From positions 278,994 to 342,993 of the forward strand of contig JBAQNJ010000001.1 in the NCBI GenBank assembly GCA_049303675.1: a stretch of 64,000 nt of DNA, given 5' to 3'. Origin of the DNA: Microgenomates group bacterium (GTDB lineage: Bacteria; Patescibacteriota; Microgenomatia; UBA12405). Shown here piece by piece: positions 19,798 through 60,257 of the stretch; within the stretch, counting starts at the first letter, position 1; every line of letters begins with the position of its first letter. Below the pieces are notes generated by a model. The model did not search any database. It saw only the letters and a program-made list of their open reading frames with translations, and was not told the DNA's origin. Position numbers and translations under genes: made by a program.

Positions 19798-20151
19798 CTA
19801 TATTTCACCCCTCAGCCACCTAATTCTTTCTATATATTCATCATAATTTCGCAACTCTCCGTTTTTCTCAAAAGTATATCTCGCTCCCCGAATATCCATC
19901 TTGGCTTGTTCGCTTGCCTCCACCACTTCTACCTCAATTGCTGTTCTCAATCCAATTTCCAATGCTCTGGCAATCCTATGATGACCAAATTTGACATACA
20001 GGTTACCGTCCCCAGTATCCTCCAAAACAACTCCTTCAAAATTAATATCTCCAATTTGTTTAGCCCTAGCCAAATCACGGGCAGAATTGTATCTAGGGTA
20101 ATCAGTGGGGATTATTTTTTCTTTATCGAGAATAACCATTTTTCTGGTCAT
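19798..20151 (-). CDS. ParB-like nuclease domain protein
   Basis: 117 aa; GHHRIARALEIG (GHHR ParB/Srx motif). Confidence 0.55.
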   Translation of the reverse strand: MTRKMVILDKEKIIPTDYPRYNSARDLARAKQIGDINFEGVVLEDTGDGNLYVKFGHHRIARALEIGLRTAIEVEVVEASEQAKMDIRGARYTFEKNGELRNYDEYIERIRWLRGEI

Positions 20152-20195
20152 GTCCGATTATAGTCCTTCTTACCTAGATTAGCATGATTATTATT

Positions 20196-20245
20196 GATAT
20201 AATCCCACAGTAACCCGGTGATAGTCCCGCCGCTGCGGGACGGTT
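20196..20245 (+). repeat. Partial duplicate of tRNA-Tyr promoter + 5' part (acceptor to D-arm) with inserted GC hairpin tcccgccgctgcggga
   Basis: tgatataat...cagtaacccggtgatag[tcccgccgctgcgggac]ggttatgc matches 20510..20556 except hairpin replaces caaagc. Confidence 0.7.
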
Positions 20246-20512
20246 ATGCAAATAATGTATTATGTCTATATTTTAAAAAGTTTGGTTGACGGAAAAATTT
20301 ATACAGGTTTTACTTCTGACCTAAAGCACCGATATCAACAACATTTAGACGGAATGGTTTTTTCGACCAAAAATCGTCGACCACTTAAACTAATTTATTA
20401 CGAAGCTTTTTTATCAAAAATAGATGCAGCAAAACAAGAAAAGTATCTAAAGTCAGGTGGTAAAGCAAAAATTGATTTAAAAACAAAAATAAAAAATAGC
20501 TTAGAACTTTGA
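20246..20512 (+). CDS. GIY-YIG nuclease domain protein
   Basis: MYYVYILKSLVDGKIYTGFTSDLKHRYQQHLDG...KYLKSGGKAK; GIY-YIG with conserved R/H and E-bearing region. Confidence 0.65.
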   Translation: MQIMYYVYILKSLVDGKIYTGFTSDLKHRYQQHLDGMVFSTKNRRPLKLIYYEAFLSKIDAAKQEKYLKSGGKAKIDLKTKIKNSLEL

Positions 20513-20518
20513 TATAAT
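20510..20518 (+). promoter_or_regulatory. Extended -10 (TGaTATAAT) for tRNA-Tyr
   Basis: tgatataat 14 nt upstream of tRNA 5' end; identical copy at 20196. Confidence 0.45.
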
Positions 20519-20531
20519 TTGGCTCAGTAAC

Positions 20532-20603
20532 CCGGTGATAGCAAAGCGGTTATGCGTCGGTCTGTAAAACCGATCTAGGTAGGTTCAACTCCTACTCACC
20601 GGA
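20532..20603 (+). tRNA. tRNA-Tyr(GUA), class-I-like (short variable loop, C1:G72)
   Basis: Manual cloverleaf: acceptor CCGGTGA/TCACCGG, anticodon stem TCGGT/ACCGA loop CTGTAAA (anticodon GTA), V-loop TCTAG, T-arm GTAGG-TTCAACT-CCTAC, discriminator A. Confidence 0.7.
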
Positions 20604-20611
20604 CATAATTT

Positions 20612-20663
20612 TAGCGACGGTCTGTAACCCCGCCGCTGCGGGGCAACTCCTACTCACCGGACT
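20612..20663 (+). repeat. Partial duplicate of tRNA-Tyr 3' part (anticodon loop to acceptor 3') with same GC hairpin replacing V-loop/T-stem
   Basis: gcgacggtctgtaa[ccccgccgctgcgggg]caactcctactcaccgga vs tRNA gcgtcggtctgtaaaaccgatctaggtaggttcaactcctactcaccgga. Confidence 0.7.
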
Positions 20664-21297
20664 CATTTTTTAATCTCTCTAATATTTTTGGTGTTATCGG
20701 CCATAAAGTAGCCGCAGTATAATCCGCGTATTCTTCTGGTGTCATTTCTGATAAAGTATTTTTTTTCCCTTCAGGAATAAAAAACCAATCAAAATAATAA
20801 CCAAGTTTTGTAATTCGTAATTCATTTGCCGCTGTACCTCTTGTTCTGACACCTTCCGAAATTACTTCACCATTAGGTATAGCCAAGGCAATTCCATAAC
20901 CAAAATAAATAGTTCGATTTTCAGTACCATTCAATTTGTCTAACAGTTTTTGAGTATTAGTTACGTCCGACTCGTATCGATTGTCTACTCCCAGTATCAT
21001 TTTGTCGTTGCCTGTTAATTCTTTTTTGGATTCTGTCCCTGGCCAGCCACCAAGTGCTTCAAATTCAATTCCTCTGTCAAAAGAAATCGACATCAGACCA
21101 GATGCTCTGCAGTAAGCCCTAGCCTTCAATTCACTATCACCTACAAAGCTACCCGAATTCTCCTCAACTTCAATATCTATCCCCAGTTCTTTAGGGTTTA
21201 CAAATCTATACAGCTTATCAAGTCCCAACTTTCGACAAGAATATAAAAATGGTTCTACCTTTGATCTATTTGTCGTCGCAATTAGTAGGTCTTTCAT
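20650..21297 (-). CDS. Ham1/RdgB-family non-canonical purine NTP pyrophosphatase (divergent)
   Basis: Manual alignment to RdgB: LLIATTNRSKVEP~VVLATGNVGKVRE; EENSGSF..ELKAR; LGGWPGTES; GYYFDWFFIPEGKKNTLSEMTPEE~[24 protein letters not shown]. Confidence 0.55.
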   Translation of the reverse strand: MKDLLIATTNRSKVEPFLYSCRKLGLDKLYRFVNPKELGIDIEVEENSGSFVGDSELKARAYCRASGLMSISFDRGIEFEALGGWPGTESKKELTGNDKMILGVDNRYESDVTNTQKLLDKLNGTENRTIYFGYGIALAIPNGEVISEGVRTRGTAANELRITKLGYYFDWFFIPEGKKNTLSEMTPEEYADYTAATLWPITPKILERLKNESGE

Positions 21298-31691: not shown

Positions 31692-32171
31692 TTGCTGGAA
31701 TTAGAGAAAAAATTGCCAAAAAACAATTTGCTAAATTATCAAATTGTTTATTTTCATCCCAAAACTTTTTTCAATAAATATATAAAAAGTTTTTGCACCC
31801 CTTCCCCCTTGTTAAAGGGGGATCGAGGGGGATTAATCATTGGTCTTGGCGATTTCTTTGGTGACATTACCAAAATCCGTCTCGAAACTATTACCCATAA
31901 TCAATATGCTCAAAACTCAATTTATCCATTTTCACCCATCAATTTAGATATTTCGCTGCCACCACTGGAAGATATTGACGAAAGAATCTTTACCGTTAGT
32001 GAACACATGGGCAAATACAATTGCAACTGGATTGTCTATTCTACCGAATTATATATCCGTCAACATGCCCCAGCCACAAAGCAATTATTTTTTCACCTGC
32101 CCCGTTCCCAAAATGCCACCATTTTAGCCTCTCAAATATACAATTTGCTCAATAATAATCAAATAATTTAG
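31692..32171 (+). CDS. Hypothetical protein (contains repeat copy in-frame; start uncertain)
   Basis: 159 aa ORF; hairpin repeat at 31804-31834 encodes SPLLKGDRGGL. Confidence 0.25.
   Translation: MLELEKKLPKNNLLNYQIVYFHPKTFFNKYIKSFCTPSPLLKGDRGGLIIGLGDFFGDITKIRLETITHNQYAQNSIYPFSPINLDISLPPLEDIDERIFTVSEHMGKYNCNWIVYSTELYIRQHAPATKQLFFHLPRSQNATILASQIYNLLNNNQII
31804..31834. repeat. Hairpin repeat family copy 1 (short form)
   Basis: cccccttgttaaagggggatcgagggggatt. Confidence 0.8.
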
Positions 32172-32175
32172 TGTT

Positions 32176-32218
32176 TTCCCCCTTTTCAAGGGGGAAGCGG
32201 CGTAGCCGAGGGGGTTTT
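32176..32218. repeat. Hairpin repeat family copy 2 (long form)
   Basis: ttcccccttttcaagggggaagcggcgtagccgagggggtttt, followed by ttataat 5 nt before ATG 32235. Confidence 0.8.
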
Positions 32219-38892: not shown

Positions 38893-39132
38893 TTATACAA
38901 AATGTTTCTTGGCAAAAGCTATTCCCGACCCTGTTTTAAGATATTTCTCAAATTTATATGCGATATATTTGTCATTAAATGCAAAATACACCTTTACTTT
39001 CCAGGGTTTATAAAATTGTGTTGCGGGTACTTTTCCTTCATTGTGCATTTTAATCCGCTCTTTTAGGTCTTCAGTACATCCTACATACCTCCGTCCGTAC
39101 TTATTTGTAAGTATGTAAACATAAGAAAACAT
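38893..39132 (-). CDS. GIY-YIG nuclease domain protein (paralog of 20246..20512)
   Basis: MFSYVYILTNKYGRRYVGCTEDLKERIKMHNEG...KYLKTGSG. Confidence 0.65.
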   Translation of the reverse strand: MFSYVYILTNKYGRRYVGCTEDLKERIKMHNEGKVPATQFYKPWKVKVYFAFNDKYIAYKFEKYLKTGSGIAFAKKHFV

Positions 39133-39206
39133 TACAAATTTTATTACAAATGGAGGACTTTGTCCTCCGGAGCAGAGAGATTATTTGACAATTTAGACAG
39201 TTGGCG

Positions 39207-46417: not shown

Positions 46418-46455
46418 TTTCCCCTCTTTGCTCAAAGAGGGGCTAGGGGTGATTT
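46418..46455. repeat. Hairpin repeat family copy 5 (short form)
   Basis: tttcccctctttgctcaaagaggggctaggggtgattt. Confidence 0.7.
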
Positions 46456-48436: not shown

Positions 48437-50217
48437 TGAATAATAATCTATATAAAAATAGTACTTTCCCCCTTTTTCAAGGGGGGATTAAGGGGGGTTT
48501 TGTATTAAAAACTTTTTTTTACTTTTTACTTTTTACTTTTGTTTTTATTTTAATTTTTACTCTCCCTCTTATTTTCGGTTTTGGCAAAACCGGCAAAAAC
48601 ACTCTTGTTTTAGGCAAAGACTATTCCTTACTCTCCAAATCCCAAATAATTTCTCGCTTATCAGTCGATTTTCCTCTTCCTCCCAGCCTGAATATTCAGA
48701 CCTCAAACCGCAAATTTACTCTCAATTTAGCCGATATCTCCGCCCAATACGACTATCCCTCAATCGCATCCAATCTACTATTCCGTCGACTTCATAGTGG
48801 AGTTTTACCTTATTTTAAGGCATTTTTTCAGCCAAAAAACTTTAGCCTTAGTCTCGATTACAGCTCCGATTCACTCGATAAACAAATTGCCAATATCTCC
48901 CAGCAGGTCGATCATCCCTTTGTTCCCTCCCAATTTAGTCTCGATGAGAAATCCAAAGAAATCATCCTCAAAAACGGTGAACGGGGGCAAAGAGTCAATT
49001 CTGAAGAATTGAAAAACCGTCTCGTCTCTGCTCTTCGTTATTATGAGGCATCTACCCCTATCGACCTTCCCCTCGACCCTATTGGTGAGTTGCCCACTAC
49101 TGATCAAATTAGTAGTGCCACCGCTGTCGCTCAGTCCCTTATCGGCAAGAAGCTCGAATTTTCCGCCCCCGACGAGGTTGTCACCCTCGACGACAAGACC
49201 CTTATTTCTTGGGTCGACTTTGGGACCATTTGTCGCCGCTCCACAGTTGATGATTATGTCGCTGGACTGAAGTCTAGTCTGAAAAAGGATCCTGTCGAAG
49301 CCGTCTTCAAATTTGAAAATGGTCAAGTCCTCGAATTTCAACCATCTAAAAATGGTTATCTATTAGATGACTCCAATTTAAGCCAACAAATTTGTTCAAA
49401 AATAGTTGAACTATCCCAATCCTCGGACAAAATAATTAAGGATAAATTCCCAGTTATCACCCTCGAAACCAAGACTCAAAACTCTGATGTCAACAATTTA
49501 GGCATCAAAGAATTAATTGGCAGTGGCACCTCTACCTTCCGTCACAGTAGTACTATTCGCAATATCAATGTCGAGCGCGGCGCCCAAATAGTCAATCGCA
49601 TTTTAGTCGCCCCAGGCGAAAAGTTTTCCTTTGTCAAAGCTCTTGGCGATGTCACCATCGAAAATGGTTTCAAAATGGCTTATGTCATTCGGGCCGGCAA
49701 GACGGAATTAGACGTTGGTGGTGGTATCTGTCAGGTCTCCACCACTTTTTTCCGCGCCCTTCTCAATTCTGGGCTCGATATAATTGACAGACGCAACCAC
49801 GCCTATCGAGTCCAATACTATGAAGAAGACATGCCCCCAGGTTATGACGCCACTGTTTTTATCCCCAGTCCTGATTTATCTTTTGTCAACGACACTGGCC
49901 ATCATATCCTTATTCAAAGTAAATATGATGGTAAAAATAAACGGCTTACCTACGATCTTTATGGTACCTCCGATGGTCGATCTGTCGATATTAGCAACTA
50001 TCGCCAATGGGGAGCTGCTCCTGCTCCTCCGGCGGTCTATATTGACGATCCTACCTTACCGGCGGGCAAAGTCGTTCAGGACGAGCACGCTATTCCAGGA
50101 CTGAAGACATCTTTTGACTGGAAAGTGACCCGAGCCGGAGAGATAATCCATCAGAAAACCTTTACCAGCAATTTCGTCCCTTGGGCCGCCGTTTTCCGTC
50201 GCGGACCGCAAATTTAA
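48436..50217 (+). CDS. VanW-family protein with N-terminal TM
   Basis: GGGICQVSTTFFRALLNSGLDIIDRRNHAYRVQYY...GYDATVF VanW core; N-terminus carries hairpin repeat copy 6 and heptamer tract in-frame. Confidence 0.7.
   Translation: MNNNLYKNSTFPLFQGGIKGGFVLKTFFYFLLFTFVFILIFTLPLIFGFGKTGKNTLVLGKDYSLLSKSQIISRLSVDFPLPPSLNIQTSNRKFTLNLADISAQYDYPSIASNLLFRRLHSGVLPYFKAFFQPKNFSLSLDYSSDSLDKQIANISQQVDHPFVPSQFSLDEKSKEIILKNGERGQRVNSEELKNRLVSALRYYEASTPIDLPLDPIGELPTTDQISSATAVAQSLIGKKLEFSAPDEVVTLDDKTLISWVDFGTICRRSTVDDYVAGLKSSLKKDPVEAVFKFENGQVLEFQPSKNGYLLDDSNLSQQICSKIVELSQSSDKIIKDKFPVITLETKTQNSDVNNLGIKELIGSGTSTFRHSSTIRNINVERGAQIVNRILVAPGEKFSFVKALGDVTIENGFKMAYVIRAGKTELDVGGGICQVSTTFFRALLNSGLDIIDRRNHAYRVQYYEEDMPPGYDATVFIPSPDLSFVNDTGHHILIQSKYDGKNKRLTYDLYGTSDGRSVDISNYRQWGAAPAPPAVYIDDPTLPAGKVVQDEHAIPGLKTSFDWKVTRAGEIIHQKTFTSNFVPWAAVFRRGPQI
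48465..48501. repeat. Hairpin repeat family copy 6 (short form), in-frame in VanW N-terminus
   Basis: tttccccctttttcaaggggggattaaggggggtttt encodes FPLFQGGIKGGF. Confidence 0.8.
48511..48541. repeat. Heptanucleotide tract actttttttt(actttttx2)acttttg
   Basis: encodes FFYFLLFTF of VanW signal/TM. Confidence 0.75.
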
Positions 50218-54159: not shown

Positions 54160-54194
54160 TCCCCCTTGTTAAAGGGGGATTTAGGTGGATTAGG
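54160..54194. repeat. Hairpin repeat family copy 8 (short form)
   Basis: tcccccttgttaaagggggatttaggtggattagg between divergent PHP and lemA. Confidence 0.75.
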
Positions 54195-60076: not shown

Positions 60077-60105
60077 AAATATCAATCCCGCAACTGCGGG
60101 ATTTT
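60077..60105 (+). terminator. Intrinsic terminator
   Basis: aatcccgcaactgcgggatttttttt. Confidence 0.7.
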
Positions 60106-60184
60106 TTTTCGTTTAAATAGGTCTAAATTTCAAACGAAGTGAAAAAATTTTGCCTATTTACACAATCCGCCTCTGGCGGAGTTT

Positions 60185-60257
60185 GGGTGGATAGTTCAGT
60201 TGGTTAGAATGCTGGTCCCCAAAACCGGCGACAATGGTTCAAGTCCATTTCCACCCA
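60185..60257 (+). tRNA. tRNA-Trp(CCA)
   Basis: Acceptor GGGTGGA/TCCACCC, anticodon stem CTGGT/ACCGG, loop CCCCAAA (anticodon CCA; C at 33), T-arm AATGG-TTCAAGT-CCATT, discriminator A. Confidence 0.7.

Follow-up and report, generated by a model that had tools for sequence, protein, structure and literature searches.

The mobile open reading frames (ORFs) of fungal mitochondria, or mORFs, bring a foreign gene end into the host gene while the native end stays 3' of the insertion; they have been described in atp6 of Allomyces and in atp6, atp9, cox2 and nad3 of Glomus (PMC3630166). In phage T4, the free-standing GIY-YIG homing endonuclease SegB is encoded within a tRNA gene cluster, where cleavage in the tRNA region leads to preferential inheritance (PMC2330249); segmental amplification driven by SegB has been reported as well (PMC13096335). 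The small bacterial GIY-YIG proteins of the minimal Slx1-like family have no assigned function, and UPF0213-type proteins are discussed as vertically inherited proteins of repair or RNA metabolism (PMC1564403); Slx1 is presented in one report as a structure-selective nuclease that cuts branched DNA (PMC6902002). A recent survey of mobile DNA in tRNA genes of Patescibacteria covers group I and group II introns only, with GIY-YIG genes, hairpins and duplicated fragments unmentioned (PMC13011429). Here we analyze a rearranged tRNA-Tyr gene associated with a small GIY-YIG nuclease ORF, located in a window of 64,000 nucleotides (nt), i.e. the whole stretch of DNA under analysis, from a Microgenomates group bacterium (contig JBAQNJ010000001.1, positions 278,994 to 342,993) of the Patescibacteria, or candidate phyla radiation (CPR).

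The locus is probably a resident copy of a small selfish, homing-type mobile-ORF cassette directed at tRNA genes, in which one live tRNA is preserved. Elements that consist of a free-standing endonuclease and duplicate their target are already known; the new features are the minimal Slx1-type nuclease, the tRNA targets of many identities, and the conserved hairpins in the displaced tRNA pieces. No publication describing GIY-YIG/UPF0213 genes linked to hairpin-substituted pseudo-tRNAs was found in a literature search.

Like mORFs, the cassette consists of a free-standing endonuclease ORF (GIY-YIG in the case of atp9) near a host gene end, with one working copy kept and the displaced native end duplicated beyond the ORF, and the two gene copies can be different alleles. 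The same arrangement occurs at protein genes in two related loci (L167 and L038), and tRNA loci show it with either a 5' or a 3' tRNA part. In contrast to mORFs, the elements considered here reside in bacterial (CPR) chromosomes, mostly at tRNA genes with which they share a promoter, encode an 85-amino-acid (aa) Slx1-type minimal domain without a DNA-binding domain, and are accompanied by displaced pieces with conserved GC hairpins. As with SegB, the GIY-YIG gene lies among tRNA genes, and the SegB-driven amplification may be analogous to the tandem 3' units found in two related loci (L004 and L097) and to the 3' tRNA fragment in the window. SegB differs in being phage-borne and in that no hairpin-patched pseudo-tRNAs have been described for it, and the window ORF is a better match to UPF0213/Slx1 than to I-TevI; SegB itself, a member of the I-TevI/Seg lineage, far exceeds an 85-aa catalytic domain in size. 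The Slx1/UPF0213 proteins (YhbQ-like; PDB entries 1zg2, 1ywl and 7cq3) share with the window protein the sequence, the predicted fold, and the GIY, YIG, Arg, His and Glu residues, whereas the clade analyzed here behaves like a selfish tRNA-gene-associated cassette. The group I introns with homing endonucleases of Patescibacteria have in common with it the phylum, the tRNA-gene targets and the endonucleases (PMC13011429), whereas here the tRNA is duplicated rather than interrupted. A group I or II intron in the tRNA gene was rejected: E-value scans against Rfam, run on 19900-20900 and on six related loci, detected tRNAs only, and no intron, riboswitch or T-box.

The tRNA-Tyr locus and its empty counterparts

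The window holds the arrangement that characterizes mORFs, namely an intact tRNA together with displaced parts of it, here positions 1-24 and 23-73 (Table 1; tRNA positions in the two copies are given as linear tRNA coordinates). The 5' fragment (copy A, 20215-20249) precedes the nuclease ORF, and the 3' fragment (copy C, 20614-20662) follows the intact tRNA; they are contiguous, with position 24 the last of copy A and position 23 the first of copy C. Each fragment carries a 16-nt GC hairpin in place of native sequence. In copy A, hairpin module 1 replaces CAAAG at positions 11-15 (the 5' strand of the D-stem and the start of the D-loop), and in copy C, module 2 replaces the last base of the anticodon loop, the 3' strand of the anticodon stem, the variable loop, the 5' strand of the T-stem and 2 nt of the T-loop. 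Upstream of hairpin 1, a 17-nt exact repeat (CAGTAACCCGGTGATAG; 17/17 identical) links 20208-20224 to 20525-20541 at the intact gene.

Table 1. Coordinates of the features of the rearranged tRNA-Tyr locus in the window
Feature	Coordinates	Strand	Description
Box TTGATATAAT	20194..20203	+	Extended -10 type (TGnTATAAT); exact 10-nt repeat of 20509-20518
Copy A, block 1	20208..20224	+	Leader CAGTAAC (7 nt) and tRNA-Tyr positions 1-10 (CCGGTGATAG)
GC hairpin module 1	20225..20240	+	T-CCCGC-CGCT-GCGGG-A; stem extendable to G20224/C20241
Copy A, block 2	20241..20249	+	CGGTTATGC, tRNA-Tyr positions 16-24; same junction in L176/L177
GIY-YIG nuclease ORF	20255..20512	+	85 aa from MYYVYIL, or 88 aa from ATG 20246; minimal Slx1/UPF0213 type
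Second box TTGATATAAT	20509..20518	+	Overlaps ORF stop TGA 20510-20512
Intact tRNA-Tyr(GTA)	20532..20604	+	72-73 nt, short variable loop, C1-G72; ARAGORN; Rfam RF00005 59.9 bits, full length
Copy C, block 1	20614..20627	+	GCGACGGTCTGTAA, tRNA positions 23-36, anticodon included; one mismatch, T26>A
GC hairpin module 2	20628..20643	+	C-CCCGC-CGCT-GCGGG-G; replaces tRNA positions 37-54 (18 nt)
Copy C, block 2	20644..20662	+	CAACTCCTACTCACCGGAC, tRNA positions 55-73; adjoins native downstream flank (alignment with empty-site relatives)
Ham1-like NTP (nucleoside triphosphate) pyrophosphatase gene	20650..21297	-	Neighbour; last four codons and stop from copy C reverse strand

The box upstream of copy A would be the resident tRNA-Tyr promoter, now driving copy A and the GIY-YIG ORF; relatives with an empty site carry a TTGATACAAT box 13 nt 5' of their tRNA-Tyr. 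A consensus promoter scan that required a -35 box did not call it. The second box is presumed to be the promoter of the intact tRNA-Tyr, and in the occupied relatives L176 and L194 the ORF end likewise overlaps a TATAAT box.

All features noted at this locus in a preliminary description, made from the sequence alone, are present where it placed them. Its GIY-YIG ORF at 20246-20512 is confirmed by the Pfam match (the family-typical start is ATG 20255), the second promoter copy with an intact tRNA-Tyr by the ARAGORN prediction, and the contiguity of the two partial copies by their 24/23 junction. The boundaries can be given more exactly: the promoter-linked 5' copy with its hairpin stands, ending at position 24 instead of about 25, and the segment lost from it is not confined to the D-loop, as had been suggested, but takes in the 5' strand of the D-stem; the hairpin-bearing 3' copy also stands, starting at position 23 rather than about 26.

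The presence or absence of the insert varies among relatives, which the preliminary description had proposed to check. The site is empty in the Shapirobacteria contigs L088-L092, syntenic over Ham1, tRNA-Tyr, ExoIII, YgjP, RpiB and PGK: a single intact tRNA-Tyr adjoins Ham1, and there is no ORF, hairpin or fragment; Ham1-like homologues in these contigs are 82% and 66% identical to the one in the window. Occupied tRNA-Tyr sites are found in the window, in L176/L177 and in the contig encoding the homologue P0002; L194, which stood outside the synteny comparison, has the same design. In L176/L177, whose ORF is 74-75% identical to that of the window, the native promoter is followed by tRNA positions 1-10, a hairpin, CGGTTATGC and the ORF, whose stop overlaps TGATATAAT; beyond it lie an additional hairpin and the intact tRNA. 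The element is distributed patchily, because the occupied L176 is closer by ExoIII to the empty L089 (81.5% identity) than to the occupied window (78%), and this patchiness requires either loss or repeated site-specific gains.

These empty sites and the relatives L176/L177 and L194, where the ORF meets the 5' tRNA fragment at almost the same place, together with the recurrence at other tRNA genes described below, bear out the earlier suggestion that an endonuclease cassette entered and rearranged the tRNA, or that a duplication associated with the endonuclease did so, and the matching box in the empty-site relatives agrees with the claim that the ORF now sits behind a copy of the tRNA promoter, a function that the box would have by its position. 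The more specific proposal of one tRNA split around an inserted unit of ORF and tRNA is possible and is not the sole history, because L176 and L194 have copy A, the ORF and the intact tRNA and lack copy C. The window carries 58 nt between the tRNA and Ham1 that the empty sites lack; because a 19-nt repeat bounds this indel on both sides, either of the two sets of positions 55-73 may be native. Copy C may be an independent 3' unit of the type that is amplified in tandem in L004 and L097.

Several observations concern the surroundings of copy C and the tRNA itself. In the relatives the Ham1 gene stops exactly at the tRNA end (..LKK*), whereas the Ham1-like gene in the window lacks this stop and runs for four extra codons into the reverse strand of copy C (..NESGE*; 20650-20662). 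Two independent Logan assemblies (L002 and L003; runs SRR28062879 and SRR28062869) traverse hairpin 1 without trouble and both end at base 20615, the start of copy C, which may reflect structural heterogeneity 3' of the live tRNA. The tRNA-Tyr of this lineage (window 20532-20604; L176 2809-2881; L089 1713-1785; L091 4564-4636; L194 1773-1845) is 72-73 nt long, with a 5-nt variable loop and C1-G72, and is thus of the archaeal/eukaryal type, unlike the bacterial class II tRNA-Tyr with its long variable arm and G1-C72, which other CPR loci do have (L046 and L127; 86 nt). The tyrosyl-tRNA synthetase and tRNA-Tyr of this lineage may thus form an unusual recognition pair, and a literature search found no publication on such a tRNA-Tyr there.

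Recurrence at other tRNA genes and at protein genes

The same layout recurs at tRNA-Tyr, Trp, Cys, His, Pro and Ser genes of other CPR/Patescibacteria genomes. Of 160 homologue loci taken from genome and metagenome collections, 57 contain a tRNA no more than 150 nt from the ORF; these tRNAs number 68, and all but two of them (66) share the strand of the ORF (p = 8e-18). All members of the closest clade contain hairpin-interrupted pseudo-tRNA copies derived from the adjacent tRNA, which is tRNA-Tyr in the window, L176/L177 and L194, tRNA-Trp in L004, L008, L011, L013, L096, L099, L100, L101 and L193, and tRNA-Cys in L009, L010, L012, L097 and L098; hairpin-interrupted pseudo-tRNAs are also found just outside this clade, at the tRNA-His loci L017 and L032. 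The common order in these loci is a hairpin-interrupted 5' or full-length pseudo-tRNA, the ORF, the intact tRNA and, in some of them, a 3' hairpin unit. Related elements thus sit at different tRNA identities.

The design is illustrated by the tRNA-Trp loci L004 and L008 of another CPR genome, in which the ORF is 72% identical to that of the window. Their pseudo-tRNA-Trp is full-length, with the D-arm and positions 38-55 each swapped for a 16-nt GC hairpin, and the intact tRNA-Trp starts 6 nt past the ORF stop. It is followed by 3' units composed of positions 27-37, a hairpin and positions 56-76, one in L008 and at least three in tandem in L004 (period 52); L097 has tandem 3' units too (period 64). 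Since the tRNA begins 0-7 nt past the ORF stop in the Trp and Cys loci, it must be co-transcribed there with the ORF.

More distant tRNA loci vary the theme. At the tRNA-Ser locus L015, positions 1-71 with two hairpins precede the ORF, the intact tRNA, a GC-rich insert and positions 72-88; at the tRNA-Pro locus L050, a two-hairpin pseudo-copy lies 5' and a piece with positions 51-78 lies 3'; in L066 and L018, the intact tRNA is 5' of the ORF, with a 3' fragment or an acceptor minihelix on the 3' side. The inserts between the intact tRNA and the displaced 3' piece in L015 (2834-2979) and L050 (2838-3011) are GC-rich, apparently structured, and 150-170 nt long; no Rfam family matched them. In L042 (2430-2492 and 2737-2799) and L138 the ORF lies between two identical 63-nt GC-rich palindromic elements, which are not tRNA pieces, and tRNA-Asn follows just 3'.

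Two loci preserve evidence of the displaced allele. In L099 and L101, the two outer fragments, 5' and 3', have mutually complementary acceptor strands (AGGGGTG/CACCCCT and AGGCCTG/CAGGCCT, respectively) that differ from the inner intact tRNA, so two tRNA-Trp alleles are present, one of them disrupted, as expected had the replacement copy travelled with the ORF. Distant members of the family are located where a protein gene ends, and the 3' end of that gene is duplicated. A 12-14-bp inverted repeat encloses the ORF of L167 and L038 just past the stop of a ~500-codon host protein gene, and a diverged duplicate of the last 16-22 codons of this gene, stop included, is found 3' of the ORF; the inverted repeat begins with CCCCG, as do the hairpin stems. 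In L141, the insertion adjoins a terminator hairpin.

The nuclease and the hairpin modules

The ORF product matches the GIY-YIG domain of Pfam (PF01541) with E = 8e-15 and 55 bits against a cutoff of 22.6, and a phmmer search of the PDB retrieved only the bacterial UPF0213 structures 1zg2 (E = 2e-7) and 1ywl (3e-4). In an AlphaFold2 model (mean predicted confidence, pLDDT, 92.6) it is a stand-alone 85-aa domain with no accessory or DNA-binding domain, for which Foldseek ranks 1zg2 first, then the Slx1 nuclease domain (7cq3_A; root-mean-square deviation (rmsd) 1.6 Å, template modelling (TM) score 0.71) and then I-TevI (TM 0.48); the Slx1 matches overall have TM scores of 0.65-0.71 and rmsd of 1.6-3.2 Å. 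Residues Y5, Y16, G18, R26, H30 and E62 are invariant among 39 homologues, and the ratio of nonsynonymous to synonymous substitutions (dN/dS) is 0.05-0.15 in five of six ORF pairs, with 0.38 for the pair L009-L010. Given the invariant residues, the fold matches and the low dN/dS, the ORF is, as judged by sequence and model, an intact, selected, minimal nuclease domain of the Slx1/UPF0213 type.

Its closest protein homologues are P0002 (86% identical) and P0003 (83%). A PHROGs search with the nuclease gave weak N-terminal matches only. IMG/VR contains 15 relatives, of which L178 is 56% identical and the rest 39-43%; the latter are encoded on the large viral contigs L179-L192, several of them ~200 kb long. 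The first in-frame ATG of the window ORF (20246) belongs to copy A block 2, and gene callers start the ORF at this upstream ATG within the tRNA-derived block. They routinely run such ORFs into tRNAs, since the N- or C-terminal extensions of the database relatives P0100, P0012, P0014, P0035 and P0099 are translated adjacent tRNA genes (e.g. ..VAQLVRA.. and ..GWLSGRKRQS). A second, diverged GIY-YIG ORF in the window (38893-39132 on the minus strand; 79 aa, 47% identical over 66 aa) has no tRNA nearby, and a GC hairpin, GGAGGACTTTGTCCTCC (39152-39168), is located ~20 nt 5' of its ATG.

The hairpins are a conserved, covarying module of this element family and are not incidental. The module consensus is N-CC[C/G]GC-N4-GC[C/G]GG-N'; a hairpin finder picked out 20 distinct instances, in each of which the stem consists of six standard pairs. 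Three of the six show compensatory changes, for example G-C in place of C-G at pair 4/13, in seven instances, and U-A in place of C-G at pair 1/16. The two stem pairs that are not Watson-Crick are G.U on the sense strand, which is a weak hint at an RNA-level role of the hairpins. Within 575 kb of fetched loci, 25 of 30 modules lie no more than 450 nt from a GIY ORF (~10 expected; p = 2e-8). The leader made of pseudo-tRNA and hairpin is conserved at 35/40 positions between the window and L176, against 48% identity of ORF third positions (synonymous divergence, dS, is saturated here), at 64/66 against 72% between L012 and L098, and at 80/82 against 71% between L008 and L193; hairpin module 1 itself is identical at 15/16 positions between the window and L176. 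The hairpins are considered functional because the leader is conserved beyond synonymous sites and the stems covary. The tRNA segments that they replace typically run from loop to loop, with break points at 21/22, 31/32 or 37/38, and 55/56 in standard numbering.

Folding of copy C and its counterparts gave a local hairpin and weak, inconsistent long-range pairs (z-scores -0.9 to -2.2), and a long stem formed by hairpins 1 and 2 of L008 was not reproduced in L012. The hairpin (CCGC...GCGG) resembles CCGCGG, the site of the GIY-YIG restriction enzymes Cfr42I and Eco29kI, but a link is unsupported, as most modules lack this site.

The 14-mer CCCGCCGCTGCGGG shared by the two window hairpins (20226-20239 and 20629-20642) occurs nowhere else in the window. 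With up to two mismatches 0.09 matches were expected, the observed count was reached in 0 of 100 shuffles, and the only other similar site in the 64 kb is a terminator at 60087. A REP-like (repetitive extragenic palindromic) genome-wide repeat was rejected, as the 64 kb contains two exact copies only. Short GC palindromes tied to a small nuclease or transposase gene, or to endonuclease insertion sites, are familiar from pairs of REP sequences and REP-associated tyrosine transposases (RAYTs), from miniature inverted-repeat transposable elements (MITEs), and from the GC-rich double-hairpin elements of the AT-rich mitochondrial DNA of Allomyces. In contrast to these, the present modules are few per genome and lie within tRNA-derived scaffolds where they replace defined tRNA segments, and unlike in REP/RAYT the associated protein is a GIY-YIG and not an HUH/Y1 enzyme. 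The terminator mentioned above (AATCCCGCAACTGCGGGATT and a T-run; 60084-60111) has the same CCCGC/GCGGG stem as the hairpins of the tRNA-Tyr locus. A tRNA-Trp gene at 60185 has a small hairpin, TCCGCCTCTGGCGGA (60166-60180), 4 nt 5' of it, and no GIY-YIG ORF.

Selfish cassette or other origin

In the favoured reading of the locus as a selfish tRNA-targeting cassette, the resident promoter, the leader and the first third of the tRNA (copy A) would form the 5' leader of the nuclease mRNA, and the second -10 box, overlapping the ORF stop, would transcribe the intact tRNA-Tyr, leaving copy C as the hairpin-patched 3' two-thirds of a tRNA between the live tRNA and Ham1. The element would spread when the nuclease breaks an unoccupied tRNA gene and the break is repaired from the occupied allele, so that the ORF and a replacement tRNA part are copied; the same break-induced recombination could occasionally yield tandem extra tRNA pieces such as copy C. 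These steps are modelled on mORFs and T4 SegB. The 16-nt GC hairpins would be cis-acting parts of the element, our preferred guess being a structured DNA (or RNA) on which the Slx1-like nuclease acts; they could also break the cloverleaf and the homology of the displaced pieces, with the consequence that no faulty tRNA is made and no recombination with the live copy deletes the ORF.

A number of points weigh against this reading. An 85-aa catalytic domain without a DNA-binding domain makes classical sequence-specific homing hard to picture, and cleavage, target site and transfer are features that the model predicts by analogy. At 10-20 nt, the blocks of homology on either side of a hairpin are short for repair of the RecA type, the hairpins vary in orientation and in the sequence of their loops, and the choice of modules by a hairpin finder biases their pairing percentage by ascertainment, leaving the covariation unaffected. 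The cassette model also leaves the loop-to-loop pattern of replacement unexplained. No near-identical copies at different sites were seen in the samples examined. Between the window and L176, the ORF (75% aa identity) is no more similar than ExoIII (78%), and such host-like divergence fits long vertical residence over recent movement. A fixed homing gene would not be expected to stay under purifying selection in the long term unless re-invasion continues or the host benefits. Taken together, the host-like ORF divergence and the purifying selection on ORF and leader suggest that the element is an old resident of this lineage, which leaves room for a domesticated or host-useful role.

Such a role is the core of the alternative that survives best, which we nevertheless consider unlikely: a domesticated or housekeeping enzyme of host tRNA/RNA metabolism or local DNA repair, co-transcribed with tRNAs, for which the pseudo-tRNA would be a tRNA-mimicking regulatory leader (e.g. 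for autoregulation or processing) and the fragments would be by-products of tRNA gene turnover. Strong purifying selection on the ORF and the even stronger conservation of the leader are what it would lead one to expect, as are the host-like ORF divergence, the near-universal same-strand linkage to tRNAs with the close spacing at Trp and Cys genes, and the two sense-strand G.U pairs. A fusion of GIY-YIG with TrmH, a tRNA methylase, is also on record and has prompted the proposal of an RNA role for prokaryotic Slx1-like proteins (PMC1564403). However, an essential tRNA factor would not be as patchy as this element is among close syntenic relatives, and the placement of related elements at different tRNA identities, the second diverged copy in the window with no tRNA nearby, the members at protein-gene 3' ends with duplicated gene ends and inverted repeats, and the disrupted second tRNA allele around the live one in L099 and L101 all disagree with a housekeeping function.

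We regard as improbable a hairpin-ended cut-and-paste or copy-in element, in which the hairpins would be terminal repeats, each 16-nt hairpin being two ends joined without the ORF (a MITE-like footprint), and the GIY-YIG protein would act as a transposase or structure-specific integrase into single-stranded loops of extruded tRNA cloverleaves or terminator hairpins. The ORF of L167 and L038, placed exactly between inverted repeat arms that might be the terminal repeats of a transposon, fits this idea, and so do the break points of the substitutions, which fall in tRNA loops (D-loop, anticodon loop and T-loop), the insertion beside a terminator hairpin in L141, and a fold resembling that of Slx1, described in one report as structure-selective (PMC6902002). 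The flanking duplications, in contrast, are long, imperfect and variable in length, unlike the target-site duplications of transposases, the hairpins replace sequence and are not merely inserted, and copies are few, with no multi-copy near-identical elements seen. To our knowledge, a transposase consisting of a GIY-YIG domain only is without precedent.

Ordinary local duplication, or attachment-site scars of an integrase island with the GIY-YIG ORF as a chance neighbour, is very improbable. Islands that integrate at tRNA genes usually leave a partial 3' copy of the tRNA as their signature; yet the whole insert is ~0.4 kb, with the GIY-YIG gene as the sole inserted ORF, no integrase or cargo and 9 nt between the tRNA and copy C, a 5' fragment is present as well, and the design of ORF, pseudo-tRNA and hairpin is repeated in dozens of unrelated contigs at different tRNAs. 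Both the integrase island and a chance rearrangement were rejected.

A split or permuted tRNA, in which copies A and C would be halves joined at the RNA level by hairpins comparable to archaeal split-tRNA leaders, can hardly be right and was rejected too: the fragment coordinates are contiguous, the acceptor strands of the two fragments are able to pair, and the pieces end and start beside ~14-nt GC-rich sequences that superficially recall the GC-rich complementary leaders (~14 nt, often near the anticodon loop) of the split tRNA genes of Nanoarchaeum and Caldivirga, whereas the loss of positions 11-15 and 37-54 leaves no D-stem, anticodon stem or T-stem, which together with the intact tRNA-Tyr between the fragments makes a spliced tRNA very unlikely, the two hairpins are identical and self-complementary rather than complementary to each other, L176 and L194 lack copy C, the empty-site relatives have a normal gene, and an archaeal-type tRNA splicing endonuclease is not expected in a bacterial host. 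The preliminary description had also foreseen a tRNA-like minihelix upon removal of everything between the identical hairpins, and the locus joined in silico across both of them does fold into a minihelix-like stem, albeit as a hypothetical molecule.

A broader extension of the selfish-cassette reading is tentative, and we hold it to be doubtful. The UPF0213/Slx1-like clade might be the engine of unrecognized ultra-small mobile elements made of nuclease and hairpin only, which would recognize DNA structure instead of sequence and rewrite essential tRNA genes into hairpin-substituted scaffolds, with a live tRNA copy kept or imported inside; the host could then not lose the element, and the nuclease would ride on the tRNA promoter.

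The proposed selfish tRNA-gene-associated cassette offers a testable role for at least one clade of the very large UPF0213/minimal Slx1-like family, structures of which have been solved since 2005. The loci show that in the streamlined CPR genomes essential, probably single-copy tRNA genes can be remodelled by 0.3-0.4-kb elements, and that transcription of a tRNA may come to pass through a nuclease gene or to start within it, which bears on tRNA annotation and gene turnover. Hairpin-substituted pseudo-tRNAs would represent a new kind of tRNA-derived cis element, and a structure-selective nuclease with a defined hairpin would make an attractive minimal system for break-induced gene conversion. 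In practical terms, such loci break assemblies and yield ORF calls that read into tRNAs.

Finally, the window contains a separate small repeat family, represented by the hairpin TCCCCCTTGTTAAAGGGGGA at 31803-31822 and 54160-54179 and by variants at 32176-32196, 48468-48485 and 46421-46442, which is often trailed by an (A/T)GGGGG..ATTA motif.

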